From a virus (lineage: Duplodnaviria > Heunggongvirae > Uroviricota > Caudoviricetes), in IMG/VR virus record IMGVR_UViG_2925939204_000003, positions 1 to 32,291 of that record: DNA of 32,291 bases; one strand, written 5' to 3'. The notes below the pieces were generated by a model. It ran no database searches. It was not told the origin of the DNA and worked only from the letters and a program-made list of their open reading frames with translations. How positions within the stretch are numbered: the stretch's first letter is position 1; each line of letters opens with the position of its first letter. Shown here piece by piece: positions 6,601-27,000 of the stretch. The position numbers and the translations under genes were made by a program.

Positions 6601-6605
6601 CTGAC

Positions 6606-7321: not shown

Positions 7322-7328
7322 TTGCTAT

Positions 7329-7342
7329 GTAACTATTGTTAC
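7329..7342. promoter_or_regulatory. Operator GTAAC-TATT-GTTAC in repressor/cro intergenic region
   Basis: Second copy of the same palindrome, 48 bp from the first. Confidence 0.5.
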
Positions 7343-7371
7343 TCTCCTGCTCGAAATAACAGGAGAGTTTT

Positions 7372-8009: not shown

Positions 8010-8080
8010 CTGACAATAGCCATATCGAATCGCTTCCGGCAACTCGTGAGTAAAAAGATTCGGTATCAGAAGAGGTGAGT

Positions 8081-9151: not shown

Positions 9152-9191
9152 GTGTTAATTTCTGGTCATGAGGTAATTTTCAGGAGGACTT

Positions 9192-9617: not shown

Positions 9618-9770
9618 ATTAAAGAGCATTAGTTCAGATGTGAATTGACATTTTCATGGCGCAGGGTAGAGCCAGCGTGGTTGTCCGCTTTGCGTCAAAA
9701 CCAGATATTACCAGATTTAGACATATATTCCCGATAGCCCTGCTCTGATGCTACACTCTGTGCTATTTTC

Positions 9771-10457
9771 ATGACCCCAATAAAAATATTTATGACTATT
9801 GCTGATTTCAAACGGCCTAAATTGGAGCTCCCAAACGGGGCAAACAAACTACTACTGCACTCTTGCTGTGCTCCATGTTCCGGTGAAGTGATGGAGGCGC
9901 TTCAGGCCTCGGGAATCGACTACACCATCTTTTTCTACAACCCGAACATTCATCCTCAGAAAGAGTATTTAATTCGTAAGGATGAAAATATTCGCTTTGC
10001 TGAACAACACGGCGTGCCGTTTATCGATGCTGATTACGACACCGACAACTGGTTTGAACGTGCCAAAGGAATGGAATGGGAGCCTGAGAGGGGGATCCGT
10101 TGTACCATGTGTTTTGACATGCGTTTTGAGCGGACAGCGTTGTACGCTGCTGAAAATGGTTTCAGTGTGATCAGCAGTTCACTGGGCATTTCACGCTGGA
10201 AAAATATGCAGCAGGTTAACGAGTGTGGGCGGCGAGCTGTTGCGCATTATCCGGGTATGGTGTACTGGGATTATAACTGGCGCAAGCAGGGCGGCTCGTC
10301 CCGTATGATTGAAATCAGCAAGCGCGAAAAATTCTATCAGCAGGAATATTGTGGCTGTGTGTATTCTCTGCGCGATACCAATCTACACCGCAAATCTCAG
10401 GGACGCCCTCTTATCAAAATTGGCCAACTCCACTACGGAAAAGAAGAGAAGGAGTGA
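9771..10457 (+). CDS. DUF208 family protein, epoxyqueuosine reductase QueH-like
   Basis: Motifs [44 protein letters not shown] match recalled QueH Cys pattern; start may be the second Met (9792). Confidence 0.6.
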
Positions 10458-10584
10458 TTTTATGGATCACCTTTCTGATTGATTTCATATTGGCGAGGTG
10501 ACGTGAGTTAAGTAGAATGGCTGCGGGTGCTTGAGGCTATCTGTCTCAGGCATGAACACTGAAAGGCAGATAGAGAAAAGCCCC

Positions 10585-10646
10585 AGTTAACATTACGCGT
10601 CCGGCAAGACGCTTAACATTAATCTGAGGCTCAATCTATGAACGGC
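10585..10646 (-). ncRNA. Predicted Sok-like antisense RNA of the hok locus
   Basis: Minus-strand promoter -35 TTGCCT (10676..10681) and -10 TAACCT (10653..10658) at 17-bp spacing, placed as in plasmid R1 hok/sok; extent of RNA approximate. Confidence 0.3.
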
Positions 10647-10694
10647 AAATCTAGGTTAGCCTCTTACGTGCCGAAAGGCAAGGAGAAGCAGGCT

Positions 10695-10850
10695 ATGAAG
10701 CAGCAAAAGGCGATGTTAATCGCCCTGATCGTCATCTGTTTAACCGTCATTGTGACGGCACTGGTAACGAGGAAAGACCTCTGCGAGGTACGAATCCGAA
10801 CCGGCCAGACGGAGGTCACTGTCTTCACAGCTTACGAACCTGAGGAGTAA
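10695..10850 (+). CDS. hok: Hok-family type I toxin (51 aa)
   Basis: MKQQKAMLIALIVICLTVIVTALVTRKDLCEVRIRTGQTEVTVFTAYEPEE matches Hok (HokD/RelF-like); SD AAGGAGAAG; conserved upstream leader motif TAGCCTCTTAC. Confidence 0.75.
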   Translation: MKQQKAMLIALIVICLTVIVTALVTRKDLCEVRIRTGQTEVTVFTAYEPEE

Positions 10851-10993
10851 GAGACCAGGCGGGGGAGAAATCCCTCGCCACCTCTGATGTGTCAGGCATC
10901 CTCAACGCACCCGCACTTAACCCGCTTCGGCGTTTTTTCCGTTGATTAACTCTAGTTATTAGAGAACCGAACTTTTATTGATGGGGCAGGGAG

Positions 10994-11386
10994 ATGAAGA
11001 AACTTGTTTTAGTCGCAGGTGTAATGATTGCAACAGTAATGTTGGGAGGGTGTGCAGCAAAGGTCGATCCAGCGTTGAAAGCAGAAGCAATGAAGCCACT
11101 AACATGTAATGATGAAAAGCAATGTGACTTTTATTGGAAACGAGCGCAATTCTGGTTGGCTAATAATTCCTCATGGAAAATTCAAACGGCGACAGACACG
11201 CTAATTTCCACTTATAATCCCTCTCCAAATAGTCCATTCCTCGCTTATCAGGTGAGTAAAATGCCAAATGAAGATGGATCCTCAAGAATTTTCATCAAGC
11301 CTTTTTGCGATAATATGTTTGGCTGTCAACCAAACCCCTATCAGGCAGTTGTTTCCTTTAAAAACTTCGTTAAAACAGGGCAGTAG
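10994..11386 (+). CDS. Putative lipoprotein, unknown function (cargo gene)
   Basis: Signal peptide with lipobox MLGG-C; AT-rich relative to neighbours. Confidence 0.6.
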   Translation: MKKLVLVAGVMIATVMLGGCAAKVDPALKAEAMKPLTCNDEKQCDFYWKRAQFWLANNSSWKIQTATDTLISTYNPSPNSPFLAYQVSKMPNEDGSSRIFIKPFCDNMFGCQPNPYQAVVSFKNFVKTGQ

Positions 11387-11585
11387 TGTATAGCTTGGAC
11401 GATAAATTATTAGTGAAAACGCCGTAAACCCTCACCCAATGTGGACTAAGTCTATCAAACATGACTGTGATGATTAGTCCGTAGTTGTTGCCTATGAAAT
11501 CTGGATTGAGTCAGGGTTTAATCCAATAATTATTCTATCGTTCCTTTACAAGTCCGGTATATTACTTTCAGTTTGTTTTAGCATA

Positions 11586-11610
11586 CCCGCTTCGGCGGGT
11601 TTTGTTTTTT
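11586..11610 (+). terminator. Intrinsic terminator
   Basis: CCCGC-TTCG-GCGGG followed by TTTTGTTTTTT. Confidence 0.6.
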
Positions 11611-11682
11611 CCTGGCATTCTGGTTTACAATTCGCACGCCAGCCTGAACAACTGGCACCTGCTGCGCCAGCAGAGACAACCG

Positions 11683-11961
11683 ATGGCGCACGATACCAAA
11701 TTACACAATTCTGATGATTCTGCCGTCTTTGCCAGCAGGCACGGGCGGCGTTCCCGCACTTTCAAATCTGACTGGTTCCAGCATGACCCATGTACTGAAG
11801 AACAGGCCGAATGGCTAATTCATAACTATCGCAGACGCGGATACGAGATTAAGAAAGCCCTCAGCCTCGATTATCGTCACTGGATAATCTATGTCAGGCT
11901 CCCTTATTCCGAACGCCCACCGCGCCCATCCCGCACATACCAGCAACGGATCTGGAGGTAA
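11683..11961 (+). CDS. Hypothetical protein, translationally coupled to downstream DUF968 gene
   Basis: ORF 11602..11961; internal Met chosen; stop 2 nt before downstream GTG start; start uncertain. Confidence 0.35.
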   Translation: MAHDTKLHNSDDSAVFASRHGRRSRTFKSDWFQHDPCTEEQAEWLIHNYRRRGYEIKKALSLDYRHWIIYVRLPYSERPPRPSRTYQQRIWR

Positions 11962-11962
11962 C

Positions 11963-13012
11963 GTGCGGATATTACTTCGACCTGTTCTGGTACCGGAACT
12001 CGGGCTGGTGGTCCTTAGGCCGGGCCGTGAATCCATGCAAGTATTTCATAACCCTCGAGTGCTGGTGGAGCCTGAACCGAAAAGCATGCGCGGTCTGCCG
12101 TCCGGAGTCGTCCCTGCCGTTCGCCAGCCGCTGGCGGAGGATAAATCATTACTGCCATTTTTCAGCGATGAGCGGGTGATTCGTGCTGCTGGCGGCGCTG
12201 GGGCACTGTCTGACTGGCTGTTGCGTCATGTCAAATCCTGCCAGTGGCCTCATGGTGACTATCATCACAGTGAAATCGTCATACATCGTTACGGTACCGG
12301 CGCGATGGTGTTGTGCTGGCACTGCGACAACCAGTTGCGTGACCAGACATCCGAATCACTCGGGCAACTTGCTCATCAAAACCTGTCAGCATGGATGATT
12401 GACGTCATACGCCATGCAATGAATGGCACGCAGGAGCGGGAATTGTCGCTGGCTGAATTATCCTGGTGGGCGGTCTGCAATCAGGTGGCGGACGCGCTTC
12501 CGGAGGCAGTATTACGTCGTTCTCTGGGGTTACGTGCGGAAAAAATCCGCTCCTTGTACCGCGAAAGCGACATCGTACCGGGAGAGCAGACCGCCACCAG
12601 CATACTGAAGCAGCGCACAAAAAATCTTGCGCCGTTGCCTCATGCCCACCAGCAACAGAACCCACCACAGGAAAAGACGGTGGTATGCATCACCGTTGAT
12701 CCGGAGTCTCCGGAATCTTTCATGAGGCGACCTAAACGTCGCCGTTGGGTAAATGAGAAATATACGCGCTGGGTGAAGACACAGCCGTGTGCGTGTTGTG
12801 GTCAGCCAGCCGACGATCCCCATCACCTGATTGGTCACGGTCAGGGAGGGATGGGAACAAAGGCCCACGATATTTTCACGCTACCGTTGTGCCGGGAACA
12901 TCACAACGAACTTCATGCGGATCCGCTGGCGTTCGAAGAAAAGCATGGTTCCCAGGTTGATTTAATTTTTCGTTTTCTTGATCACGCCTTTGCAACCGGC
13001 GTGCTCGGGTAA
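11963..13012 (+). CDS. DUF968 family phage protein (YdfU-like) with C-terminal HNH-like Cys/His motif
   Basis: GTG start with SD GGAGG gives 349 aa; C-terminal CACCGQPADDPHH..CREHHNELH; upstream part of the track ORF overlaps the previous gene. Confidence 0.55.
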   Translation: MRILLRPVLVPELGLVVLRPGRESMQVFHNPRVLVEPEPKSMRGLPSGVVPAVRQPLAEDKSLLPFFSDERVIRAAGGAGALSDWLLRHVKSCQWPHGDYHHSEIVIHRYGTGAMVLCWHCDNQLRDQTSESLGQLAHQNLSAWMIDVIRHAMNGTQERELSLAELSWWAVCNQVADALPEAVLRRSLGLRAEKIRSLYRESDIVPGEQTATSILKQRTKNLAPLPHAHQQQNPPQEKTVVCITVDPESPESFMRRPKRRRWVNEKYTRWVKTQPCACCGQPADDPHHLIGHGQGGMGTKAHDIFTLPLCREHHNELHADPLAFEEKHGSQVDLIFRFLDHAFATGVLG

Positions 13013-13024
13013 AAGAGGTTACTG

Positions 13025-13384
13025 ATGCGTATAGAGTTTGTTTTGCCTTATCCGCCGACGGTGAATACTTACTGGCGACGTCGTGGCAACACATATTTTG
13101 TATCAAAAGTCGGTGAGCGTTATCGCCGTGATGTGGCACTAATTGTTCGCCAGCAGCGGTTGAAATTAAACCTGTCCGGAAGGCTGGCAATAAAAATTAT
13201 TGCAGAGCCACCGGATAAGCGCCGCCGCGACCTGGACAATATCCTGAAGGCACCACTGGATGCGCTGACGCATGCCGGACTTCTCATAGACGACGAGCAG
13301 TTTGATGAAATCAATATTGTGCGCGGACTGCCTGTTCCTGGTGGTCGGCTGGGGATAAAAATCACAGAACTGGAGTGCGCATGA
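13025..13384 (+). CDS. rusA: Holliday junction resolvase RusA
   Basis: 119 aa with RRRDLDN catalytic motif, LPxPPSxN N-terminus and GGRL C-terminal motif. Confidence 0.8.
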   Translation: MRIEFVLPYPPTVNTYWRRRGNTYFVSKVGERYRRDVALIVRQQRLKLNLSGRLAIKIIAEPPDKRRRDLDNILKAPLDALTHAGLLIDDEQFDEINIVRGLPVPGGRLGIKITELECA

Positions 13385-14070
13385 ATAACCAGTATTTACA
13401 GTTTGTGCGTGAGCAGCTCATTATCGCTACCGCTGATTTGAGTGGGGCAACAAAAGGTCAGCTTGAAGCCTGGCAGGAGAATGCCATGTTTGATACAGGG
13501 CGTTACAGGCGTAAAAAAATCCGGTACCACGATGAAGTGACTGGAAGAATGATAACGCGGGATAGTCCACCGATACCGGGAAAACAATCACTGGCGAAAG
13601 GCTCATCAATTGCTCTGGTAAGTCAGGTTGAGTTTTCGACATCATCATGGCGACGGGCAGTTCTGTCTCTTGAAGAACATCATAAAGCCTGGTTGTTGTG
13701 GTGTTACAGCGGGAGTATTTGTTGGGAATATCAGATCGCGATAACACAGTGGGCGTGGAATGAATTTAATACTCAATCCGGTACCAGAAAAATTGCAGGG
13801 AAAACGCAGGAACGCCTGAAAAAATTAATCTGGCTGGCGGCGCAGGCAGTAAAAGCAGAACTTTTTGGTGGGGAAGGTTATGAATACCAGGAGCTGGCAT
13901 TACTGGCGGGAGTGACAACTAAAAACTGGTCCAAAACATTTACTCGTCACTGGGTTGCAATGAAACACATTTTTCACCGACTTGATAGTGAGGCTTTATT
14001 GTTTGTAATGAGAACACGTTCAAAACAAAAGGCGGCATTTTCAAAGCAAAGTGTTGCAAAAGTAGATTGA
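13381..14070 (+). CDS. Putative late-gene regulator at the Q antiterminator position
   Basis: Positional only: directly downstream of rusA, start overlaps rusA stop, immediately upstream of pR'/tR'-like elements and lysis genes; no recognised Q motif. Confidence 0.45.
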   Translation: MNNQYLQFVREQLIIATADLSGATKGQLEAWQENAMFDTGRYRRKKIRYHDEVTGRMITRDSPPIPGKQSLAKGSSIALVSQVEFSTSSWRRAVLSLEEHHKAWLLWCYSGSICWEYQIAITQWAWNEFNTQSGTRKIAGKTQERLKKLIWLAAQAVKAELFGGEGYEYQELALLAGVTTKNWSKTFTRHWVAMKHIFHRLDSEALLFVMRTRSKQKAAFSKQSVAKVD

Positions 14071-14082
14071 AAGGCATATATT
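14054..14082 (+). promoter_or_regulatory. Candidate late promoter pR': -35 TTGCAA, 17-bp spacer, -10 TATATT
   Basis: Near-consensus sigma70 promoter spanning the end of the Q-position gene. Confidence 0.5.
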
Positions 14083-14135
14083 TCATGCAAATCTGATATT
14101 TTGCCGATTTTGTACGTGATGGCAAAAGCAAACAA

Positions 14136-14160
14136 AACCCGCCCACAAGCGGGTTTTTTG
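14136..14160 (+). terminator. Intrinsic terminator (tR'-like)
   Basis: AACCCGC-ccacaa-GCGGGTT followed by TTTTTT, about 55 nt downstream of the candidate pR' start. Confidence 0.6.
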
Positions 14161-14264
14161 TGCCACTTATCTCGGATAGACATGGTGAATGCGCTGGTGG
14201 AGGAGATAAGGGTGATTTTTGAATGCTTGCAACATTGATTTCGTAACGTTATTATCCTGCGCCC

Positions 14265-14340
14265 GGCCCTTTAGCTCAGTGGTGAGAGCGAGCGACTCAT
14301 AATCGCCAGGTCGCTGGTTCAAATCCAGCAAGGGCCACCA
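14265..14340 (+). tRNA. tRNA-Ile2 (anticodon CAU, lysidine type; ileX/ileZ-like)
   Basis: Clean cloverleaf; anticodon loop CUCAUAA; close to recalled E. coli ileX sequence. Confidence 0.8.
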
Positions 14341-14341
14341 G

Positions 14342-14418
14342 CCGCCACTAGCTCATCAGGAAAGAGCGTCAACCCTTTAAGTTGAGTGTGCGAGGTTCGA
14401 GTCCCCGGTGGCGGTCCA
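14342..14418 (+). tRNA. tRNA-like gene, anticodon ambiguous (loop CCUUUAA, nominal UUU); possibly degenerate
   Basis: Acceptor, D and anticodon stems pair; position 33 is C not U; one A-C mismatch in T-stem. Confidence 0.45.
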
Positions 14419-14420
14419 GT

Positions 14421-14496
<76 letters not shown>

Positions 14497-14499
14497 TAT

Positions 14500-14574
<75 letters not shown>

Positions 14575-14580
14575 GTTAGA

Positions 14581-14626
14581 GTCTTTCAGTCTGCGATGAT
14601 GGGAAATCCCGGAGTGACTGAAAGAC
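14581..14626 (+). other. Hairpin: 11-bp perfect inverted repeat GTCTTTCAGTC / GACTGAAAGAC with 24-nt loop containing an inner GGGA/TCCC stem
   Basis: Seen directly, just after tRNA-Gly. Confidence 0.5.
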
Positions 14627-14633
14627 GTTTAAG

Positions 14634-14706
14634 TTATGAATGATCGCCTTTTTTTGCAAAATTGCTGTGCAGAAATACTAACCTTCGGGCAGGCGATCAT
14701 TCATAA
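14634..14706 (+). other. 15-bp perfect inverted repeat TTATGAATGATCGCC / GGCGATCATTCATAA separated by 43 nt
   Basis: Seen directly in non-coding region between tRNAs and holin. Confidence 0.5.
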
Positions 14707-14866
14707 GCACTCTGCTTTTATTCCGATTAACTGTGGGTGGTTTGTTGGATAGAGTGCTTTCCTTTCTGTATATATCGTTTCGCCCGCTTTTGCGGTTTTT
14801 TCTTTTCAAATCCCTTTCATTTCTCAGTGTAAAACTACGCCATCCGTTATTTGCGGAGGTGAGGCT

Positions 14867-15082
14867 ATGAAATCCATGGACAAAATTTCAACGGGCATTG
14901 CCTACGGCACCTCCGCAGGCAGTGCTGGCTACTGGTTTTTACAGTGGCTTGATCAGGTCAGTCCGTCACAGTGGGCTGCGATTGGTGTACTGGGGAGTCT
15001 GGTTCTGGGCTTCCTGACTTATCTGACAAATCTGTACTTCAAAATCAGAGAAGACAAGCGTAAGGCTGCACGGGGAGAGTAA
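14867..15082 (+). CDS. S: Class II holin, phage 21 S21 pinholin type, dual-start (antiholin from M1, holin from M4 at 14876)
   Basis: [29 protein letters not shown].. matches recalled S21; two TM segments; Met-Lys-Ser-Met dual start. Confidence 0.8.
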
Positions 15083-15086
15083 TTCA

Positions 15087-15401
15087 ATGACTCAAAACTA
15101 TGAACTGATTGTGAAAGGGATCCGCAATTTTGAGAATAAAGTTACGGTAACTTTAGCGTTACGGGACAAAAAACGCTTTGACGGTGAAATTTTTGGCTTG
15201 GACATCTCGCTGGACCGTGTTGAAGGTGCCGCGCTGGAGTTTTATGAGGCAGCAGCCAGAAGGAGCATCAGACAGGTCTTCCTGGATGTTGCTGCCGGGT
15301 TATGTGAAGGGGACGAGCTGTTGCCAGAAACGCGCCCCTGTTCAGAGGCGCGGTATACCATAAAAATTAACAGTTCTGATAACTCGATTACAGGTTGTTA
15401 G
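15087..15401 (+). CDS. Hypothetical protein inserted between holin and endolysin
   Basis: 104 aa ORF with SD GGAGAG 8 nt upstream; no recognised family. Confidence 0.5.
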   Translation: MTQNYELIVKGIRNFENKVTVTLALRDKKRFDGEIFGLDISLDRVEGAALEFYEAAARRSIRQVFLDVAAGLCEGDELLPETRPCSEARYTIKINSSDNSITGC

Positions 15402-15456
15402 CTTTTTGCAGTTGGCTTTCCAGTATCTTTCATTGGTAGCATCCTGATAAATATCC

Positions 15457-15990
15457 ATGAGCGCAAAAATCAAATACGGCCTGTCAGCTGCTGTTCTGGC
15501 GCTGATTGCTGCAGGCGCGTCTGCTCCTCAAATACTTGACCAGTTTCTGGATGAAAAAGAGGGTAACCACACTACGGCATACCGCGATGGTTCCGGTATA
15601 TGGACCATCTGTCGTGGTGCCACAATGGTGGATGGTAAGCCCGTCATACCGGGAATGAAGCTGTCGAAGGAAAAATGCGACCAGGTTAACGCTATTGAAC
15701 GTGATAAGGCGCTGGCATGGGTGGAGCGCAATATTAAAGTACCACTGACCGAACCACAGAAAGCGGGTATAGCGTCATTCTGTCCCTATAACATTGGCCC
15801 CGGTAAGTGTTTCCCGTCGACGTTTTATAAGCGGCTGAATGCCGGTGATCGTAAGGGCGCATGCGAGGCGATTCGCTGGTGGATAAAAGATGGTGGGCGC
15901 GATTGCCGCATACGTTCAAATAACTGCTATGGACAGGTTATTCGTCGTGACCAGGAAAGCGCATTAGCCTGTTGGGGGATAGATCAGTGA
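15457..15990 (+). CDS. R: SAR (signal-anchor-release) endolysin, lysozyme family
   Basis: N-terminal Ala/Gly-rich segment [17 protein letters not shown] followed by lysozyme-like domain; pairs with pinholin. Confidence 0.8.
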
Positions 15991-16454
15991 GCAGAGTCGC
16001 AGCGATTATTTATACTCTGGTTATCTGCACCATCGTCTGCCTGTCGTGGGCGGTCAATCATTACCGTGATAACGCCATCGCCTACAAAGAACAGCGTGAT
16101 AAAAAAGTCAGTGAGCTGAAGCAGGCGACTGCCACCATCGCTGACATGCAACAGCGTCAGCGTGATGTTGCTGCGCTCGATGCAAAGTACTCGAGAGAAT
16201 TAGCCAATGCGAAAGCTGAAAATGAAACTCTGCGCGCTGATGTTGCCGCTGGTCGTAAGCGCCTGCGGGTCAATGCCAGTTGCTCCGCAGCCGTGCGTGA
16301 AGCCACCGGACCCACCAGCGTGGATAATGCAACCAGCCCCCGACTGGCAGACACCGCTGAACGGGATTATTTCACCCTCAGAGAACGGTTGATGACGATG
16401 CAGAAGCAACTGGAAGGGGCACAGCTATACATTCGTGAGCAATGTCTCAGATAA
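15987..16454 (+). CDS. Rz: Rz-like inner-membrane spanin
   Basis: GTG start overlapping endolysin stop (GTGA) with SD GGGGGA; N-terminal TM then coiled-coil-like region. Confidence 0.7.
16207..16392 (+). CDS. Rz1: Rz1-like outer-membrane lipoprotein spanin embedded in Rz in +1 frame
   Basis: Lipobox VVSA-C and Pro-rich mature region; entirely inside Rz. Confidence 0.65.
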
Positions 16455-16594
16455 AAAACGGCCAAGGATAATCCGCTAAAGATTCGCCGGTGGCGAAAGA
16501 GAGCCAAGGTGTCAACCTACGCTATTACTTATGATAATGCAACAGACGAAGCGGGACATTCAGGTGCATAACAAAGCGTGGCAGGTGAACTGCA

Positions 16595-16622
16595 AACCTG
16601 AAAAGGCGCAAAAATCTGCGCC
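16595..16622 (-). terminator. Intrinsic terminator downstream of GNAT gene (minus strand)
   Basis: GGCGCA-gattt-TGCGCC followed by TTTTCAGGTTT on minus strand. Confidence 0.5.
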
Positions 16623-16632
16623 AGAATGGTAG

Positions 16633-17118
16633 TTATTTTGTGGTTTTGAAAAGTTTCATGTACTGATTGATAGGTTTTCCTGAGTAAGAATCTGTCCCTG
16701 GCTCAGGAGTATCAGATAAAACTTTTGCAGCTAATTTGTTGGAGGCTTGATTACCAACCCCGACAATAGCCTCTACATAGAATTCATTGAAGGAATTTCT
16801 AAATCCGTATTGCATTTCTTCAATGCTGGCGATGAGAAGTTGAGTACCGATGCCTTGCGCTTTATATTCATCGGCTACTGCATAGCCAACGCCAAAGCAT
16901 GGTTTACCTTCAACAAACTCTGCAGGGACATATATAGCAACACCTTTAACATTTTCTCCTTCAAAGAATGCATAAGTAAACCGTGGCGTACCCTCTGCAT
17001 CATCCAAAAGCACCTTCATATTTGGGTGAACTATGCATGGTGAAGGCTTAATCAGACCATTAGAAAAGGCGTATTGAAAACTAATTAATGAGTCTGTTGG
17101 ATCAACGAGTTCTGGCAT
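16633..17118 (-). CDS. GNAT family N-acetyltransferase (cargo gene, opposite strand)
   Basis: 161 aa; acetyl-CoA binding motif AQGIGTQLL; AT-rich; flanked by AT-rich intergenic DNA. Confidence 0.6.
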   Translation of the reverse strand: MPELVDPTDSLISFQYAFSNGLIKPSPCIVHPNMKVLLDDAEGTPRFTYAFFEGENVKGVAIYVPAEFVEGKPCFGVGYAVADEYKAQGIGTQLLIASIEEMQYGFRNSFNEFYVEAIVGVGNQASNKLAAKVLSDTPEPGTDSYSGKPINQYMKLFKTTK

Positions 17119-17362
17119 TTTGAGTCCTATGTATTTTGATATAAGCGATTCAACATACTACTTTCTTACGTTTAATTCTTTAACATTAACGAGCCAGGAT
17201 ACGAAATTTTGAAAAAGAGTAAAGTTTTTAATAATTCATTCAAAGCATATCGCATGTGCACATCTAAGAAAGGCTTTCAGCTGTGAGCCTGGGTAAACCG
17301 TAAACTTTCGGCGACTCTGCCGTGCGACAGGTTCACGTCTAACATGTCTAAAAGGAAGAGTT

Positions 17363-17563
17363 ATGAAGTTTCAGGCCGCTAAACTGTATCGTGGTAAACA
17401 TTTCGCAGGGTATGGGATTGCAGTTGATGGTGAGTTACTGGAAGGGCAGCTTTCCGCCAGGACAGAGTCACGCGGAGGCGAGCCACCAACAGTCACTGTG
17501 ACTTTCAGACTGACAGCAGAACATATCGAGAATCAGCCCGTCATTCAACTGAACAGGGGGTGA
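17363..17563 (+). CDS. Hypothetical small protein
   Basis: 66 aa with SD AAGGAAG; no family recognised. Confidence 0.45.
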   Translation: MKFQAAKLYRGKHFAGYGIAVDGELLEGQLSARTESRGGEPPTVTVTFRLTAEHIENQPVIQLNRG

Positions 17564-17570
17564 GGTATTT

Positions 17571-18122
17571 ATGCCATCACGAATCCCACGCGCCTGCCGT
17601 AAGCGTGGATGTGCAGGTACAACCACAGACAGTTCTGGTTACTGCGATAAACATCGTGGCGAAGGATGGGTACAGCATCAACGCGGACTGAGCCGCCACC
17701 AGCGTGGCTACTTCCTGCACTGTTACCGTCAGTTAATGAGGATAGATGTGATGACTAAAAATATCCGTAATCTGGCACTGGCAGCGATGTCGGGGTTTCG
17801 CCATAAAACTGTTGATGTGCCTGAATGGGAAGGGGCAACGGTTGTATTACGGGAACCTTCTGCAGAAGCCTGGTTGCGCTGGCAGGAGATCGTTAAAGCA
17901 AAAGATGATGAGACACCGTTATCCGTTGCGGAGCTCGCCCGCCGAAATCTGGAAGCGGATGTTGAACTGTTCATCGATGTTCTGTGTGATACCGGACTGC
18001 AACCTGTATTTTCAGTGGATGATCGTGAACAGGTGATTGCCGTGTATGGCCCGGTGCATGCGCGGCTTCTTCGGCAGTCTCTGGAACTGATCAGTGATGC
18101 CGGCGAGGTTAAAAAAAAGTAG
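17571..18122 (+). CDS. Tail assembly chaperone G-like, with N-terminal Cys-rich extension; alternative start 17751
   Basis: Directly upstream of tape measure; ends in slippery A-AAA-AAG then TAG; both 17571 (SD GGTGAGG) and 17751 (SD GAGGA) are plausible starts. Confidence 0.55.
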   Translation: MPSRIPRACRKRGCAGTTTDSSGYCDKHRGEGWVQHQRGLSRHQRGYFLHCYRQLMRIDVMTKNIRNLALAAMSGFRHKTVDVPEWEGATVVLREPSAEAWLRWQEIVKAKDDETPLSVAELARRNLEADVELFIDVLCDTGLQPVFSVDDREQVIAVYGPVHARLLRQSLELISDAGEVKKK

Positions 18123-18424
18123 CGCTTCCGGGGATGCGTTTTCTGATGATGCTGGCGCTCAGGATGGGGCGCACATTGTCAGAGTTACGCCGGGAAATGT
18201 CCGCATCAGAAATCATGATGTGGGCAGAGTTTGACAGGTTCAGCCCGCTGGGGGACGAACGGGCTGATATCCGGGCTGCCCAGATTGTTTCAGCTGTTTA
18301 CGGTGCGCAGGGGGTCAAAGTGCCACTGAATGATGCGCTTCTTCAGTGGGAGAAGGAGCAGACAGAAGGCGTATCAGATCCATTTGCTGGACTGGAAAAC
18401 GCGCTTTTAATAGTGTCTCAGTGA
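17571..18424 (+). CDS. Tail assembly chaperone GT-like fusion made by programmed -1 frameshift at 18113..18119
   Basis: The -1 frame is open from the slippery site through ORF 18134..18424, mirroring lambda G/GT. Confidence 0.5.
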
Positions 18425-18432
18425 GTCAACAT

Positions 18433-18458
18433 AACCGCTTCGGCGGTTTTTTTTCGTC
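18433..18458 (+). terminator. Terminator-like hairpin between GT and tape measure genes
   Basis: AACCGC-TTCG-GCGGTT followed by TTTTTTTT. Confidence 0.45.
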
Positions 18459-18464
18459 CGGAGA

Positions 18465-21400
18465 ATGAGTGTGGCGACATTACGTGAACTGATTATTAAA
18501 ATCTCGGCAAATTCCCGGTCATTCCAGTCAGAGATCTCCCGGGCTTCGCGTATGGGGCAGGATTACTACCGTACCATGCAGAACGGAGGCCGGCAGTCCG
18601 CTGCTGCATCCCGTGAAATGCGGCGTGCACTGGCAGAAGTGACGGATCAGATAAATACAGCTAAATCTTCGGCACTAAACATGGCGGGGGCATTTGCCGG
18701 GGCTTTTGCTACCGGTCATCTTATTTCTCTCGCCGATGAGTGGAATTCAGTAAATGCCCGTCTGAAGCAGGCCTCACAGTCCAGTGATGATTTTCAGTCA
18801 TCACAGCGTGAATTAATGGCGATCAGCCAGAGAACGGGGACGGCTTTTTCTGATAACGCCAGCCTTTTTGCCCGCTCTGCAGCTTCCATGCGGGAGTATG
18901 GTTACAGTTCTGAGGAGGTACTGAAAGTCACCGAGGCGATCTCCACGGGCCTGAAATTATCCGGTGCCAGTACAGCAGAAGCCAGTTCGGTGATCACGCA
19001 GTTCAGTCAGGCTCTGGCGCAGGGAGTGCTGCGCGGTGAAGAGTTTAACTCGGTGAATGAGAACGGCGATCGTGTTATTCGTGCTCTGGCTGCGGGAATG
19101 GGAGTTGCCCGTAAGGATCTGAAGGCCATGGCGGATAACGGAAAGTTGACCGCCGATAAGGTTGTTCCTGCACTGATTAGTCAGCTTGGGGCATTACGTG
19201 ATGAATATGCGGCAATGCCTGATACGGTTTCATCCTCTGCAACCAAAGTTGAAAACGCCTTTATGGCCTGGGTTGGTGGTGCGAACGAGGCAAGCGGAGT
19301 GACGAAGACGCTCTCCGGTGTGCTGAATGGTCTTGCAGGCAATATTGACACCGTGGCAACCGCTGCCGGTGCTCTGGTTGCCGTCGGGGTAGCCCGATAT
19401 TTTGGCAATATGGCGTCGTCTGCTGGATCTGCAACTGCCGGATTAATTACTGCAGCCAGAAACGAAGTGGCTCTTGCTGAAGCGCAACTTCGGGGGACAC
19501 AGATAGCAACCGCCAGGGCGCGTGCGGCGGTTTATCGTGCGCAACAGGCGGTTGTTGCTGCTCGCGGTACCGAAAGGCAGGCCGCAGCAGAAGCGAAGCT
19601 GACAGCTGCCCAGGCGTCACTTACCCGTAATATTGCGGCCAGAACAGCGGCACAGACAACGCTGAATACTGTCACGTCAGTGGGGAGTCGTCTGTTAAGT
19701 GGTGCGCTGGGGTTGGTTGGTGGTGTGCCGGGACTCGTCATGCTGGGGGCGACGGCCTGGTACACGATGTATCAGAATCAGGAGCAGGCCAGAGAATCTG
19801 CACGCCAGTATGCCGCAACAATCGACGAAATTCGCCAGAAAACGTCGGCAATGTCGCTTCCTGAAGCGTCAGATAATGAGGAAAAGACGCGGCAGGCACT
19901 TGATGAGCAAAACAGGTTAATTGACGAGCAGAAAAGTAAGATTAAATCCTTACAGGAAAAAATTGCTGGCTATCAGTATGTGCTGGCAAACCCGGGCTGG
20001 ACAACCGATAACGGTTTTATGATTAACCACATGACGTCGGTAAAAACTGTCACAGAAGGGCTTGCAGAAGCAACAAATCAACTGGCAGTTGAACAGTCCC
20101 GTCTCACACAAATGCAGGGCAAAGCGCAATCCATTCAGGATGTGCTTGCCGGGCTGGAGGAGCGACGGGTGGCGTTGATCCGTCAACAGGCCGCGGAACA
20201 AAACAAAGCGTATCAGTCCCTGTTGATCATGAATGGGCAGCATACCGAGTTTAATCGCCTTCTCGGGCTCGGTAATGAATTACTTCAGCAGCGACAGGGG
20301 CTGGTGAATGTACCGTTACGGCTACCACAGGCAACCCTGGATGATAAACAGCAGACTGCACTGAATAACAGCGAGCGCGAACTGGCTCTGTCCCGCCTGA
20401 AGGGGGAAGCCCGTGAGCGTGCCCGCCTGGGTTATGCTGCGGATGATCTCGGCTTTGTGGGAGAGGCGTATCAGACAGCCAGACAGAATTATATCAATAA
20501 CTCACTGGATGCCTGGCGAAATAACCAGGCAAATAAACCCAAAGCGCATAAAAAGACCGAAGCGGAAAAAACAGAAGATATTTATAAACGGCTGATTAAA
20601 CAGCAAAAAGAACAAATAGCACTGGCAGGGCAGAATACTGAACTGGCTAAGATGAAATATCAGGTCAGTCAGGGCGAATTATCAACCCTGTCAGAAGCGC
20701 AGAAAAAAACGCTTTTGCAGAATGCAGCACTCATCGACCAGAAAAAGATTCGTGAGCAGCTTGCTGCGTATGAAAGCAGCCTGGCGGACAGTAATGCCAG
20801 TGCCCGGGCATCTGACGAAGCGCAGTTGCTGGGATATGGTGAAGGCTCACGGATGCGTGAACGACTCCAGGAAATGTGGAGTATCCGGCAGGCGTTTGAG
20901 CAGAAAAATAACGAGCTGCTGAGACAGTATCAGGCCGGAGAAATTGAAGAAGCTCTGTGGAAACAGGAGAAAGAACTGAATAAAAAATATCTGGAAGAGC
21001 GTCTCAGCGATCAGCAGGATTATTATGCAAAGGCCGATGCTTTACGTAATAACTGGAATGCCGGACTCCAGGAGGGACTGACCAACTGGGCAGACAGTGC
21101 CACCGATTATGCTTCACAGGCGGCAGATGCTGTCGTTTCCACGATGGACGGGCTGGTATCAAATATTTCCGATGCACTGGCCGGGAATGTTGTGGACTGG
21201 AGGAACTGGGGGAGTTCAGTTCTCCGGGAAGTTTCAAAAATTCTGATGAATGCAGCCATTGTTAACGGACTGAAATCACTCTCCGGTGCCGGAGGGTGGC
21301 TTGGTACGGTCGGCGGATGGATTTCGGGGGCAGTGGCAAACGCAAAAGGTGGTGTTTACACATCGGCAAATCTGAGTGCTTACAGTAACACTATTGTGGA

Positions 21401-21698
21401 TACACCGACGTATTTTGCTTTTGCGAAAGGTGCCGGGTTGATGGGCGAGGCCGGGCCCGAAGCAATCATGCCACTGACACGGGCAGCGGACGGCTCTCTT
21501 GGGGTCAGGGCCATTGGAAATGTGAATGGTGGCGGTGGATTTGTTTATTCTCCCGTGTATCACATCAGCATTCAGAATCAAGGGAGCAATGGCGAGATAG
21601 ATGCGCGCTCAGCCAGGGGACTGGTGGATCTGATCGACAGCAGGGTTGTGTCAATTATGCAGTCATCGCGTCGGGATGGAGGATTGTACAGTGCCTGA
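18465..21698 (+). CDS. Tail tape measure protein (lambda H-like)
   Basis: 1077 aa, coiled-coil-rich, C-terminus RRDGGLYSA like lambda H; start could be GTG 18471 (better SD spacing). Confidence 0.85.
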   Translation: MSVATLRELIIKISANSRSFQSEISRASRMGQDYYRTMQNGGRQSAAASREMRRALAEVTDQINTAKSSALNMAGAFAGAFATGHLISLADEWNSVNARLKQASQSSDDFQSSQRELMAISQRTGTAFSDNASLFARSAASMREYGYSSEEVLKVTEAISTGLKLSGASTAEASSVITQFSQALAQGVLRGEEFNSVNENGDRVIRALAAGMGVARKDLKAMADNGKLTADKVVPALISQLGALRDEYAAMPDTVSSSATKVENAFMAWVGGANEASGVTKTLSGVLNGLAGNIDTVATAAGALVAVGVARYFGNMASSAGSATAGLITAARNEVALAEAQLRGTQIATARARAAVYRAQQAVVAARGTERQAAAEAKLTAAQASLTRNIAARTAAQTTLNTVTSVGSRLLSGALGLVGGVPGLVMLGATAWYTMYQNQEQARESARQYAATIDEIRQKTSAMSLPEASDNEEKTRQALDEQNRLIDEQKSKIKSLQEKIAGYQYVLANPGWTTDNGFMINHMTSVKTVTEGLAEATNQLAVEQSRLTQMQGKAQSIQDVLAGLEERRVALIRQQAAEQNKAYQSLLIMNGQHTEFNRLLGLGNELLQQRQGLVNVPLRLPQATLDDKQQTALNNSERELALSRLKGEARERARLGYAADDLGFVGEAYQTARQNYINNSLDAWRNNQANKPKAHKKTEAEKTEDIYKRLIKQQKEQIALAGQNTELAKMKYQVSQGELSTLSEAQKKTLLQNAALIDQKKIREQLAAYESSLADSNASARASDEAQLLGYGEGSRMRERLQEMWSIRQAFEQKNNELLRQYQAGEIEEALWKQEKELNKKYLEERLSDQQDYYAKADALRNNWNAGLQEGLTNWADSATDYASQAADAVVSTMDGLVSNISDALAGNVVDWRNWGSSVLREVSKILMNAAIVNGLKSLSGAGGWLGTVGGWISGAVANAKGGVYTSANLSAYSNTIVDTPTYFAFAKGAGLMGEAGPEAIMPLTRAADGSLGVRAIGNVNGGGGFVYSPVYHISIQNQGSNGEIDARSARGLVDLIDSRVVSIMQSSRRDGGLYSA

Positions 21699-22032
21699 GC
21701 CTGAAGTTTTTAACTGGATCCCCCGTGAGGGGATGGAGACGACACGAAAGCCATCAGTTATTACGGTAAAGTTTGGTGACGGATATGAACAGCGACGGGC
21801 TGGTGGTCTGAATGCGGATCTGAAAACGTTTAAACCGGTATTTCGTGTCACAGATGAATATTCCCGTGCCGCGCTGGACAGTTTTTTATCCCGTCATGCC
21901 GGGATTCGTGCTTTTTTGTGGCGTCCGCCAAAACACAACAGGACTGTCCGGGTTGTCTGCAGGGAGTGGAGCATTTCGGATAATACCATGTATACCGATT
22001 TTAACTGTACCTTTGAAGAGGTCACTCACTGA
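21691..22032 (+). CDS. Minor tail protein M
   Basis: FNWIPREGMETTRKPSVITVKFGDGY aligns with recalled lambda M N-terminus; GTG start overlapping tape measure stop. Confidence 0.75.
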   Translation: MPEPEVFNWIPREGMETTRKPSVITVKFGDGYEQRRAGGLNADLKTFKPVFRVTDEYSRAALDSFLSRHAGIRAFLWRPPKHNRTVRVVCREWSISDNTMYTDFNCTFEEVTH

Positions 22033-22730
22033 TGCAGGATATACAGCAGGAAACACTCAATGAGTGCACTAAAACGGAGCAATCCGCGCTGGTCGTGCTC
22101 TGGGAAATTGATCTGACAGAGGTCGGCGGAGATCGTTATTTCTTCTGTAATGAGCAGAACGAAAAAGGTGAACCAGTCACCTGGCAGGGGCGGCAGTATC
22201 AGGCTTATCCCATTCAGGGAAGCGGATTTGAGATGAACGGCAAAGGAGCCAGTGCAAGGCCAACGCTTAAAGTCTCTAATCTGTACGGCATGGTCACCGG
22301 GATGGCGGAAGATCTGCAGAGTCTGGTCGGCGGAACGGTGGTCCGGCGTAAGGTTTACGCCCGTTTTCTGGATGCGGTGAACTTCGTCAACGGAAACAGT
22401 GACGCCGATCCGGAGCAGGAGGTGATCAGCCGCTGGCGCATCGAACAGTGCAGCGAACTGAGCGCGGTCAGTGCCTCTTTTGTGCTGTCCACACCGACGG
22501 AAACGGACGGTGCTGTTTTTCCGGGGCGCATCATGCTGGCCAACACCTGCACCTGGATCTACCGCGGCGATGAGTGCGGTTATGATGGCCCGGCGGTCGC
22601 GGATGAATATGACCAGCCAACGTCCGATATCACGAAGGATAAATGCAGCAAATGCCTGAGTGGTTGCAAGTTCCGCAATAACGTCGGCAATTTTGGCGGC
22701 TACCTTTCCATTAACAAACTTTCGCAGTAA
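22032..22730 (+). CDS. Minor tail protein L
   Basis: 232 aa like lambda L; start overlaps M stop (TGATG); C-terminal Cys cluster. Confidence 0.85.
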   Translation: MQDIQQETLNECTKTEQSALVVLWEIDLTEVGGDRYFFCNEQNEKGEPVTWQGRQYQAYPIQGSGFEMNGKGASARPTLKVSNLYGMVTGMAEDLQSLVGGTVVRRKVYARFLDAVNFVNGNSDADPEQEVISRWRIEQCSELSAVSASFVLSTPTETDGAVFPGRIMLANTCTWIYRGDECGYDGPAVADEYDQPTSDITKDKCSKCLSGCKFRNNVGNFGGYLSINKLSQ

Positions 22731-22734
22731 ACCC

Positions 22735-23478
22735 ATGACAGAGACAGAATCAGCGATTCTGGCGCACGCCCGGCGATGTGCGCCAGCGGAGTCGTGCGGC
22801 TTCGTGGTGAGAACGCCGGAGGGGGACAGATATTTTTCCTGCGTGAATATCTCCGGTGAGCCGGAGGCGTATTTCCGGATGTCGCCGGAGGACTGGCTGC
22901 GTGCACAAATGCAGGGGGAGGTTGTGGCACTGGTCCACAGCCACCCCGGTGGTCTGCCCTGGCTGAGTGAGGTCGACAGGCGGCTGCAGGTGCAGAGTGA
23001 TTTGCCGTGGTGGCTGGTCTGCCGGGGGGCGATTCACAAGTTCCGCTGTGTGCCACATCTTACCGGGCGGCGCTTTGAGCACGGGGTGACGGACTGTTAC
23101 ACGCTGTTCCGGGATGCATACCATCTGGCGGAAATTGAGATGCCGGATTTTTATCGCGGGGATGACTGGTGGCGTAACGGCCAGAATCTCTATCTTGACA
23201 ATATGGAGGCGACTGGTTTTTACCGTGTCGCACTGACAGAGGCGCAGCCGGGCGATGTGCTGCTGTGCTGTTTTGGTTCATCGGTGCCGAATCATGCCGC
23301 CATTTACTGCGGCGACGGCGAGCTGCTGCACCATATTCCTGAACAACTGAGCAAACGAGAGAGGTATACCGACAAATGGCAGCGACGCACACACTCCCTC
23401 TGGCGTCACCGGGCATGGCACGCATCTGCCTTTACGGGAATTTACAACGATTTGGTCGCCGTATCGACCTTCGTGTGA
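22735..23478 (+). CDS. Tail assembly protein K (JAB/MPN plus NlpC/P60-like)
   Basis: HSHPGG motif and high similarity to recalled lambda K; start MTETESAIL. Confidence 0.8.
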   Translation: MTETESAILAHARRCAPAESCGFVVRTPEGDRYFSCVNISGEPEAYFRMSPEDWLRAQMQGEVVALVHSHPGGLPWLSEVDRRLQVQSDLPWWLVCRGAIHKFRCVPHLTGRRFEHGVTDCYTLFRDAYHLAEIEMPDFYRGDDWWRNGQNLYLDNMEATGFYRVALTEAQPGDVLLCCFGSSVPNHAAIYCGDGELLHHIPEQLSKRERYTDKWQRRTHSLWRHRAWHASAFTGIYNDLVAVSTFV

Positions 23479-24023
23479 AAACGGGGGCCGAAGCCATCCG
23501 GGCGCTGGCCATGCAGATCCCGGCGTTTCGTCAGAAACTGAGTGACGGCTGGTATCAGGTACGGATTGCCGGGCGTGATGCAGGTGAAACCGAATTGTCT
23601 GCCCGTCTTAATGAGCCGCTGGCAAATGGTGCCGTGATCCACATCGTTCCGCGTCTGGAGGGGGCCAAAAGTGGCGGTGTGTTTCAGGCGGTGCTGGGTG
23701 CGGCGCTGATTGCGGTGGCATGGTGGAACCCTGTGGGCTGGCTGGGGGCCGCGGCTGTATCGGGTATGTATGCAGCAGGGGCCAGTATGATCCTGGGTGG
23801 TGTGGCGCAGATGCTGGCACCGAAAGCCAGGACGCCCACGGCAGCCAGTACAGATAACGGCAAACAGAACACGTATTTCTCGTCACTGGATAACATGGTT
23901 GCCCAAGGCAATGTTCTGCCCGTTCTGTACGGTGAAATGCGTGTGGGGTCGCGGGTGGTATCTCAGGAGATCAGCACGGCAGATGAAGGTGATGGTGGTC
24001 AGGTTGTGGTGATTGGTCGCTGA
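23376..24023 (+). CDS. Tail assembly protein I
   Basis: N-terminus MAATHTLPLASPGMARICLYG and C-terminus GDGGQVVVIGR match recalled lambda I; overlaps K by about 100 nt. Confidence 0.75.
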   Translation: MAATHTLPLASPGMARICLYGNLQRFGRRIDLRVKTGAEAIRALAMQIPAFRQKLSDGWYQVRIAGRDAGETELSARLNEPLANGAVIHIVPRLEGAKSGGVFQAVLGAALIAVAWWNPVGWLGAAAVSGMYAAGASMILGGVAQMLAPKARTPTAASTDNGKQNTYFSSLDNMVAQGNVLPVLYGEMRVGSRVVSQEISTADEGDGGQVVVIGR

Positions 24024-24083
24024 TGCAAAATGTTTTATGTGAAACCGCCTCCGGGCGGTTTTGTCGTTTATGGAGCGTGAGGA

Positions 24084-27000
24084 ATGGGTAAAGGCAGCAG
24101 TAAGGGGCATACCCCGCGCGAAGCGAAGGACAACCTGAAGTCCACGCAGTTGCTGAGTGTGATTGATGCCATCAGCGAAGGGCCGATTGAAGGTCCGGTG
24201 GACGGATTAAAAAGTGTGCTGCTGAACAGTACGCCAGTGCTGGACAGTGATGGGAATACCAACATCGCCGGTGTCACGGTGGTGTTCCGGGCTGGTGAGC
24301 AGGAGCAGACTCCGCCGGAGGGATTTGAATCCTCCGGCTCCGAGACGGTGTTGGGTACGGAAGTGAAATACGACACGCCGATCACCCGCGCCATCACGTC
24401 GGCAAACATCGACCGACTGCGCTTTACCTTCGGTGTGCAGGCACTGGTGGAAACCACCTCAAAGGGGGACCGGAATCCGTCGGAAGTTCGCCTGCTGGTT
24501 CAGATACAGCGTAATGGTGGCTGGGTGACGGAAAAAGACATCACCATTAAGGGCAAAACCACCTCGCAGTATCTGGCCTCGGTGGTGGTGGATAACCTGC
24601 CGCCGCGCCCGTTTAATATCCGGATGCGCAGAATGACGCCGGACAGCACCACAGACCAGCTGCAGAACAAAACGCTCTGGTCGTCATACACCGAAATCAT
24701 CGATGTGAAACAGTGCTACCCGAACACGGCACTGGTCGGCGTGCAGGTGGACTCGGAACAGTTCGGCAGCCAGCAGGTGAGCCGTAATTATCATCTTCGC
24801 GGGCGCATTCTGCAGGTGCCGTCGAACTATAACCCGCAGACGCGGCAATACAGCGGTATCTGGGACGGAACGTTTAAGCCAGCATACAGCAACAACATGG
24901 CCTGGTGTCTGTGGGATATGCTGACCCATCCGCGCTACGGCATGGGGAAGCGTCTCGGTGCGGCGGATGTGGACAAATGGGCGCTGTATGTCATCGGCCA
25001 GAATTGCGACCAGTCGGTGCCGGATGGCTTTGGTGGCACGGAGCCGCGCATCACCTGTAATGCCTGGCTGACCACACAGCGCAAGGCGTGGGATGTTCTC
25101 AGTGATTTCTGCTCGGCGATGCGCTGTATGCCGGTATGGAACGGGCAGACGCTGACGTTCGTGCAGGACCGACCGTCGGATAAGGTGTGGACCTATAACC
25201 GCAGTAATGTGGTGATGCCGGATGATGGCGCGCCGTTCCGCTACAGCTTCAGTGCCCTGAAGGACCGTCATAATGCCGTTGAGGTGAACTGGATTGACCC
25301 GGATAACGGCTGGGAGACGGCGACAGAGCTTGTTGAAGATACGCAGGCCATTCTCCGTTACGGTCGTAACGTCACGAAGATGGATGCCTTTGGCTGTACC
25401 AGCCGGGGGCAGGCGCACCGCGCCGGGCTGTGGCTGATTAAAACGGAACTACTGGAAACGCAGACCGTGGACTTCAGCGTGGGTGCGGAAGGGCTTCGCC
25501 ATGTGCCGGGCGATGTCATTGAAATCTGCGATGATGACTATGCGGGGATCAGCACCGGCGGGCGCGTGCTGGCGGTGAACAGCCAGACCCGGACGCTGAC
25601 GCTCGACCGTGAAATCACGCTGCCATCCTCCGGTACCACGCTGATAAGCCTGGTTGACGGAAGTGGCAATCCGGTCAGCGTGGAGGTCCAGTCCGTCACC
25701 GACGGCGTGAAGGTAAAAGTGAGCCGTGTTCCTGACGGCGTTGCCGGATACAGCGTATGGGGGCTGAAGCTGCCGACGCTGCGCCAGCGCCTGTTCCGCT
25801 GCGTGAGTATCCGTGAGAACGACGACGGCACGTATGCCATCACCGCCGTGCAGCATGTACCGGAAAAAGAAGCCATCGTGGATAACGGGGCGCACTTTGA
25901 CGGCGACCAGAGCGGCACGGTGAATGGTGTCACGCCGCCAGCGGTGCAGCACCTGACCGCCGAAGTCACCGCAGACAGCGGGGAATACCAGGTGCTGGCG
26001 CGCTGGGATACGCCGAAGGTGGTGAAGGGCGTGAGCTTTATGCTTCGCCTGACCGTGGCCGCCGATGACGGCAGTGAGCGGCTGGTCAGCACGGCCCGGA
26101 CGACGGAAACCACTTACCGCTTCAGGCAACTGGCGCTGGGGCGTTACACGCTGACGGTCCGGGCGGTAAATGCCCGGGGACAGCAGGGCGATCCGGCGTC
26201 GGTATCGTTCCGGATTGCCGCCCCGGCAGCGCCGTCGCGGATTGAGCTGACGCCGGGCTATTTTCAGATAACCGCCACGCCGCATCTTGCGGTTTATGAT
26301 CCGACGGTACAGTTTGAGTTCTGGTTCTCGGAAAAGCGGATTGCGGATATCAGGCAGGTTGAAACCACAGCACGCTATCTTGGCACGGCGCTGTACTGGA
26401 TAGCCGCCAGTATCAATATCAGGCCGGGCCATAATTATTATTTTTACGTTCGCAGTGTGAACACCGTTGGCAAATCGGCATTCGTGGAGGCTGTTGGTCA
26501 GCCGAGTGATGACGCATCCGGCTATCTGAATTTTTTCAAAGGCGAGATAGGGAAAACCCATCTGGCTCAGGAGCTGTGGACGCAGATTGATAACGGTCAG
26601 CTTGCGCCTGACCTGGCTGAAATCAGGACATCCATTACGGATGTCAGCAATGAAATCACACAGACCGTCAATAAGAAACTGGAAGACCAGAGTGCAGCGA
26701 TCCAGCAGATACAGAAGGTTCAGGTTGATACAAATAATAATCTGAACAGCATGTGGGCTGTGAAGCTGCAGCAGATGCAGGACGGACGCCTTTATATCGC
26801 GGGTATCGGTGCCGGTATTGAGAACACCCCCGACGGCATGCAGAGTCAGGTGCTGCTGGCGGCAGACAGGATTGCGATGATTAATCCTGCAAATGGCAAC
26901 ACAAAACCGATGTTTGTTGGTCAGGGTGATCAGATATTCATGAATGAAGTGTTCCTGAAATATCTGACGGCTCCGACCATTACCAGCGGCGGTAATCCTC

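Follow-up and report, generated by a model that had tools for sequence, protein, structure and literature searches.

Cryptic prophages such as Qin, Rac and DLP12 classically arise through deletions of structural genes at short microhomologies. In Escherichia coli K-12, these lambdoid elements have lost their morphogenesis genes by deletion (PMC6832061; PMC10448788), with immunity, lysis and cargo genes kept, and pools of defective lambdoid prophages are well documented (PMC2669165). In HK97-type cos packaging modules, an HNH endonuclease gene lies directly upstream of TerS/TerL, followed by portal, protease and capsid genes; in HK97 itself, cos is flanked by terS and by gene 74, which encodes the HNH protein, and its cleavage is promoted by gp74 (PMC9410871; PMC3592412). 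A class with an N-terminal zinc ribbon (CxxxxC + CxxH) is known among terminase-adjacent phage HNH endonucleases (Group 1; PMC3592412), and in lambda it is the T part of gpGT that brings the major tail protein to the tape measure (PMC5009743).

The window considered here (the whole stretch of DNA analysed, 32,291 bp of an IMG/VR record) resembles the K-12 cryptic prophages in being lambdoid, in having lost morphogenesis genes and in keeping immunity, lysis and cargo genes. Judging by its sequence, it is almost certainly a lambdoid E. coli prophage with an HK97-type head module that has undergone one recent internal deletion of 8,063 bp. Genes in common with Qin include dicB, DicF, ydfB/C, DicA/DicC-like regulators, hokD/sok and an rrrQ-type lysozyme. 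Qin, Rac and DLP12 are, however, old and multiply eroded, whereas the window, which a single deletion and one SNP separate from a complete prophage, is a very young defective prophage.

The left end of the window contains the integration site:

1-837, minus strand: mtfA, next to tRNA-Ser(CGA)
892-981, plus strand: tRNA-Ser(CGA), integration site on the attL side, adjoining mtfA

A 341-aa tyrosine recombinase adjoins the tRNA-Ser gene; this integrase aligns end to end, at 98.8%, with integrases of phage records and spans positions 25-165 of 172 in Pfam Phage_integrase. In relatives of the window prophage, PGAP marks the integrase as frameshifted, a flag that has no bearing on the deletion. A candidate attR, observed in CH468 only, is a 78-nt, 91% copy of window positions 920-996 that lies about 860 bp beyond the tail fibre assembly gene and hence outside the window, about 860 bp past its end. 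The window further retains a LexA-family DicA-like repressor and Cro/DicC as regulators, replication genes, the Q antiterminator, a four-tRNA array and the full lysis cassette, together with GNAT, Lom, QueH, hok/sok and dicB/DicF as cargo.

A relative closer than that in EBJ003, found by searching complete genomes with a 25-kb query from the window, is the intact prophage of CH468 (NZ_CM166354.1). Window positions 1-17710 correspond to positions 710-18419 of CH468 L003 without gaps and with one mismatch, and positions 17708-32291 correspond to L003 26480-41063, again gap-free and with no mismatch; when L003 18420-26482 (8,063 bp) is left out, CH468 reproduces the entire 32,291-bp window save base 13529. 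This one difference in the 32,291 bp alters the Q antiterminator, as a missense change (R50H). EBJ003 aligns to the window as the same two gap-free blocks at 99.9%, and a megablast search with positions 14800-18500 against 5,426 complete E. coli genomes returned many 100% matches, all of which end at query base 2911, corresponding to window position 17710.

The difference from an otherwise identical prophage is thus discrete, and the absence of head genes is no chance gap. The initial annotation had concluded from the window alone that the packaging and head module was deleted, and had proposed alignment to complete lambdoid phages with the same tail module as the way to locate the endpoints; on CH468 both endpoints map to the base, and the loss is accounted for by one 8,063-bp block relative to that prophage. 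Its expectation of a lambda-style missing block of about 10 kb has to be revised, since the block measures 8,063 bp and is of HK97 type, with an HNH gene, a P27-family TerS and an HK97-family protease. The lambda head gene set, by comparison, is Nu1-A-W-B-C-D-E.

To the left of the deletion, the following features are found:

14867-16454, plus strand: intact lysis cassette (holin, DUF1327, endolysin, Rz/Rz1), identical in intact relatives
14867-15082, plus strand: holin, within the lysis cassette
15087-15401, plus strand: DUF1327 gene, within the lysis cassette
15457-15990, plus strand: endolysin, within the lysis cassette
15987-16454, plus strand: Rz, with Rz1 embedded at 16207-16392
16633-17118, minus strand: GNAT acetyltransferase cargo gene (Pfam Acetyltransf_1, E 4.4e-6)
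17363-17563, plus strand: 66-aa ORF of unknown function (phrog_10235, E 8e-28)

The intact sister prophages in CH468, EBJ003, MS6192 and MS6193 share with the window their gene order, the tRNA-Ser/mtfA site, the lysis cassette, the GNAT gene, the 66-aa ORF and the distal tail genes, and differ from it in keeping the 8,063 bp, with full-length HNH through major tail genes. The GNAT gene occupies the same place in these relatives and is therefore native to the prophage family; it matched no PHROG, and neither it nor the 66-aa ORF matched a defence system in PADLOC. The 66-aa ORF corresponds to hypothetical protein WP_016240599.1 in relatives, where it normally sits before the HNH gene. Between the GNAT gene and the 66-aa ORF lie about 240 bp of lower-GC DNA, and GC content across 16501-17500 is 42%, against about 47-55% nearby; a promoter and terminator scan of 14000-18600 gave counts no higher than shuffled expectation. 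The Rz stop and the chaperone ATG (17751) are 1,296 bp apart, in agreement with the initial description of a lysis cassette only about 1.3 kb from a G-like gene, all named features of which are present where it had placed them. The spacer itself (GNAT, AT-rich DNA and the 66-aa ORF), which might have been taken for a product of rearrangement, is unchanged between Rz and HNH in the intact relatives.

The content of the missing block can be read from EBJ003, whose copy lies at the same site, tRNA-Ser/mtfA. There, the 66-aa ORF is followed by genes for a 116-aa HNH endonuclease, a P27-family TerS, TerL, a 53-aa ORF, portal, an HK97-family protease and the major capsid protein, and then by head-tail adaptor, head closure, an HK97-gp10-like protein, 'gp17', an Ig-domain protein and the chaperone. 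PHROGs assign the deleted head genes to terminase small and large subunits, portal, head maturation protease, major head protein, adaptor Ad1 and head closure Hc1, and the deleted tail genes to tail completion/Neck1, tail terminator and major tail protein, the Ig-domain gene being the one for the major tail (tube) protein (phrog_158, E 9e-110). Also inside the deletion lie the 53-aa ORF, the 148-bp HNH-terS interval and the 3'-terminal 60% of the HNH gene. A tblastn comparison of the window with the 13 proteins of the intact relative's stretch gave HNH residues 1-47 and the chaperone as its sole matches. No tblastn counterpart was found in the window for TerS, TerL, portal, protease, capsid, adaptor, head closure, Neck1, terminator or major tail protein.

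From its own genes, the window prophage is thus predicted to be unable to build capsids or tail tubes or to cut and package its own DNA, and its packaging site, cos, was probably lost with the HNH-terS interval. The earlier claim that the prophage can neither make heads nor package DNA by itself is in this way borne out by the tblastn result for terminase, portal, protease and capsid, whereas the accompanying statement, that tail and fibres are complete, is not, the Neck1/tail completion, tail terminator and major tail genes having been deleted as well. Nine phage-collection records contain the deleted block at 98-99% identity. We do not take them as evidence of virion production by the intact module, as the 'phage' records of the ON4705xx series are PHASTER-predicted prophages and not isolated particles (10.1101/2022.06.29.498070).

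At the junction, the sequence is organised as follows:

17571-18122, plus strand: chimeric 183-aa ORF, consisting of HNH residues 1-47, 13 linker residues (FLHCYRQLMRIDV) and the complete chaperone
17571-17710, plus strand: 5' remnant of the HNH gene, codons 1-47, with CxxxxC...CxxH and a phrog_144 HNH endonuclease match
17708-17710: deletion junction, a 3-bp CTA microhomology kept in a single copy, with 8,063 bp missing
17711-17736, plus strand: remnant of the major tail gene, its last 26 nt (8 codons + stop), the CDS end in CH468 being L003 26508, equal to window 17736
17751-18122, plus strand: complete tail assembly chaperone, the lambda G analogue, 123 aa, with its own GAGGA Shine-Dalgarno upstream

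On the left, the gene for the 116-aa HNH endonuclease breaks off behind codon 47; on the right, the break spares only the last 26 nt of the gene for the major tail protein. Both genes are complete in the relatives. CTA occurs at both parental breakpoints, and the two aligned blocks overlap by these 3 bp; at the breakpoints no longer repeats or hairpins able to drive homologous or IS-mediated deletion were found, CTA alone being common to both. The ends may have been joined by illegitimate recombination at CTA, for example through replication slippage or microhomology-mediated end joining, although a 3-bp microhomology is weakly informative, about 5% of random joins showing at least 3 bp by our own calculation. 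An HNH gene cut after codon 47 and a major tail gene reduced to 26 nt set the polarity of the change, which is a deletion and not an insertion.

The chimeric ORF records both sides of this event. Its residues 1-47 are identical to the intact HNH protein (47/47), after which the match ends, and the Cys-rich N-terminal extension, initially suspected to be a junction relic, is therefore exactly that. The HNH protein in question has an N-terminal CxxxxC...CxxH motif of the zinc-ribbon type, which HK97 gp74 does not, and this N-terminal part is all that the window keeps of the HNH/TerS/TerL module; the catalytic domain (PF01844), residues 66-112 of the intact 116-aa protein, is lost, and the 183-aa ORF has no HNH match in Pfam. 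Residues 61-183 are identical to the CH468/EBJ003 chaperone (123/123) and form a complete Pfam Phage_TAC_1 domain (E 2.8e-56). By accident, the HNH frame remains open across the 26 nt and a 14-nt spacer and coincides with that of the chaperone, so that translation begun at the HNH start codon would continue past the chaperone ATG. An exact-protein look-up of the 183-aa chimera returned a match on one Logan contig only. For annotation, this means that the 183-aa 'tail assembly chaperone' is a chimera, from which no new domain architecture should be inferred.

Downstream of the chimera, the remaining tail genes are retained:

18113-18119, plus strand: slippery heptamer A AAA AAG, a -1 frameshift site for the G-T fusion, as read from the sequence
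18134-18424, plus strand: T domain ORF (Phage_tail_T), in the -1 frame relative to the chaperone
18465-21698, plus strand: tape measure gene (Pfam TMP_3, Phage_HK97_TLTM, Tape_meas_lam_C)
21676-32291, plus strand: distal tail genes (M-like, L, K with JAB + NlpC/P60, I, J, Lom, fibre genes), kept and 100% identical to CH468
24084-27563, plus strand: J, retained
27633-28232, plus strand: Lom, retained
28291-31710, plus strand: side tail fibre, retained
31710-32291, plus strand: fibre assembly gene, retained

Chaperone and T are identical (100%) to the CH468 copies and form a predicted lambda-type G/GT pair, whose ribosome-binding site and frameshift site are untouched and for which frameshifting is predicted. 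A modelled -1 shift at A AAA AAG yields a predicted 224-aa G-T fusion, and phrog_14766, with 224 positions, is matched by the chaperone at 1-121 and by T at 129-220.

Other explanations of this arrangement have to be weighed against a deletion in a real genome, the first being that contigs were mis-joined or a repeat collapsed during assembly and that the true genome contains an intact prophage. The rarity of the junction is consistent with such an artefact, as a 160-bp junction query found no spanning match in the 5,426 complete E. coli genomes and the exact junction 32-mer matched neither GTDB representative genomes nor JGI metagenomes. However, the independently built Logan assembly of run SRR5168383 contains a 13.4-kb contig that crosses the junction and agrees with the window at every base of an 11,768-bp overlap (100% identity, positions 16355-28122), and this junction contig is reported for three samples, which makes the allele rare but real. 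The same contig is unbroken at the junction, so that an intact allele at appreciable coverage is unlikely, and the 3 bp common to the breakpoints are too short to mislead an assembler. Because the Logan contig spans the junction and a 3-bp overlap cannot cause collapse, an artefact is rated as very unlikely.

PICI-like satellites have small genomes of about 10-15 kb and carry either their own packaging signal or a terS that redirects helper packaging. A shortened prophage might similarly be a helper-dependent, satellite-like element packaged in the capsids of a co-resident phage, for which there is a parallel in O157 Sakai, where defective lambdoid prophages are packaged and transferred through inter-prophage interactions (PMC2669165); with a median of three copies of related lysis cassettes per E. 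coli genome, helper phages are, moreover, likely to be present. Nevertheless, the window, at over 32 kb, has complete lambdoid early and lysis regions and none of the hallmarks of PICI-type elements, and terS and the HNH-terS interval (the presumed cos) lie inside the deletion, which should have left the element without a specific packaging signal. Mobilisation through a cos of its own would not be expected, and the element could be rescued only by recombining with a related prophage, which is possible but would be no property of the window locus. The loss of terS and of the presumed cos region led us to reject a satellite, which we regard as extremely unlikely.

F-type tailocin loci encode tube and terminator proteins and are conserved across strains. 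Like them, the window has lysis genes beside flexible-tail genes and no head genes, the lysis cassette standing directly before chaperone, tape measure, tip and fibre genes, and it could on this basis, as the initial annotation hinted, be regarded as a domesticated tail-only machine, an F-type tailocin analogue that makes headless killing particles. Unlike them, it has no tube or terminator genes and represents a one-off deletion. With the major tail, terminator and tail completion genes gone, no tube can form along the tape measure, and because gpGT acts through the major tail protein, the retained genes cannot build a tail (PMC5009743); the tube gene having been lost with the head genes, tail-only particles are not expected. 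The locus is not a conserved one but a single allele of very recent origin, separated from an intact prophage by one SNP, and the headless junction occurs in 0 of the 5,426 complete E. coli genomes. Missing tube and terminator genes thus lead us to reject a tailocin, a reading that is scarcely credible. An ancestral short form, from which the 'intact' prophages arose by insertion of a head module, has nothing but the formal symmetry of an indel in its favour and a negligible probability, given the damage to two genes where the ends meet (the HNH gene without its catalytic domain and an 8-codon major tail stump) and a long form in at least 105 complete genomes, versus none with the short form; 105 complete genomes hold at least 80% of the 25-kb query, and terminase and portal lie under the match in 30 of the 30 listed.

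A recent deletion in a complete prophage also agrees with what is seen elsewhere in this lineage. A look-up of the Q R50H allele showed that other assemblies carry it, including GCA_045626985.1, AR_0118 and GCA_034330005.1. In GCA_045626985.1, the head module is present as far as the locus reached, into the head closure gene. AR_0118 (CP020048.1) and GCA_034330005.1 match the window at 100% along a left arm of 14,330 bp, Q R50H included, but differ from it in a 10,613-bp deletion, which extends from the 53-aa ORF behind terL into K, with a 2-bp microhomology; this derivative keeps HNH/TerS/TerL and loses portal through L, including the chaperones and the tape measure. This second microhomology deletion, independent of the one in the window, indicates that losses in the structural region recur in this prophage lineage.

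As regards consequences for the host and its other prophages, co-resident lambdoid prophages could supply head or tail-tube functions in trans, and since Q and the lysis cassette are intact, SOS induction may still kill the cell without yielding virions. We give only a slim chance to a deletion derivative that is anything but inert. If it were active, SOS induction would lead to in-place replication, lysis and overproduction of tail proteins, with an excess of tape measure, J, Lom and side fibres; host-range determinants would be donated to co-resident lambdoid phages, in trans or by recombination; cell contents would be released altruistically; and the HNH-fragment::chaperone chimera could shift G:GT stoichiometry or bind nucleic acid.

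Altogether, the window prophage represents the routine decay of an ordinary E. coli prophage, an event and a family that are already known, and no novel type of element. The significance is small outside annotation, where the prophage should be scored as defective, though prophage finders may rate it high. For the prophage family, the locus provides a base-resolved case in which a complete prophage became defective in one step, through an 8,063-bp deletion at a 3-bp microhomology.

The window differs from the intact sister prophage of CH468 at a single base, position 13529, which lies within the late-gene antiterminator gene and produces a missense change, R50H (CGC>CAC).

13381-14070: Q late-gene antiterminator

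The same R50H allele is present in AR_0118, GCA_045626985.1, GCA_034330005.1 and Logan run SRR5168392, and it therefore predates the deletion in the window.

In other strains, the same prophage has undergone an independent loss of 10,613 bp, running from a 53-aa ORF that follows terL to the interior of the K (NlpC/P60) gene, with 2 bp of microhomology (TG) at its endpoints. This event removed the genes from portal through L, including the tail assembly chaperones and the tape measure gene.

L004 (AR_0118, CP020048.1) 17055-17056 and L006 (another locus that carries it) 12157-12158: site of the 10,613-bp deletion, corresponding to 21146-31756 of the CH468 locus (L003)

Within the tail region of the window, two further elements were recorded, of which the hairpin, located downstream of the T ORF and ahead of the tape measure gene, is shared with intact relatives, and the IS009 match falls within the tail fibre assembly gene.

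18433-18448, plus strand: intrinsic-terminator-like hairpin, then a T run, AACCGCTTCGGCGGTT TTTTTTCG
32053-32251, plus strand: full-length match to Rfam family IS009 (225.6 bits)

The integrase is labelled 'frameshifted' by PGAP in CH468 and in another intact relative, EBJ003, where its sequence is the same as that of the window. Nevertheless, integrases from phage records match the 341-aa ORF over its full length at 98.8%, and the ORF spans the greater part of the Pfam catalytic domain.

1034-2059, minus strand: tyrosine integrase, 341-aa ORF

Between Q and the holin gene lies a tRNA array with anticodons CAT, Lys-UUU, Thr-UGU and Gly-UCC, the first of these being assigned to Met by ARAGORN and to Ile by PGAP.

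14265-14574, plus strand: four-tRNA array

The early region is Qin-like, with dicB, ydfB, ydfC and DicA/DicC-like regulators close to DicF. Its right part carries QueH, an uncommon type of prophage-borne cargo, immediately followed by a hokD/sok module.

5407-5458, minus strand: DicF sRNA (Rfam, 76.7 bits)
9771-10457, plus strand: gene for the epoxyqueuosine reductase QueH (Pfam E 1e-65)
10525-10700: sok RNA

The junction-spanning Logan contig (L002) ends on its left at window position 16355, within Rz/Rz1, and related lysis cassettes occupy a median of 3 places per E. coli genome. Such a break fits with further, near-identical copies of the lysis cassette in that genome, carried by co-resident lambdoid prophages.
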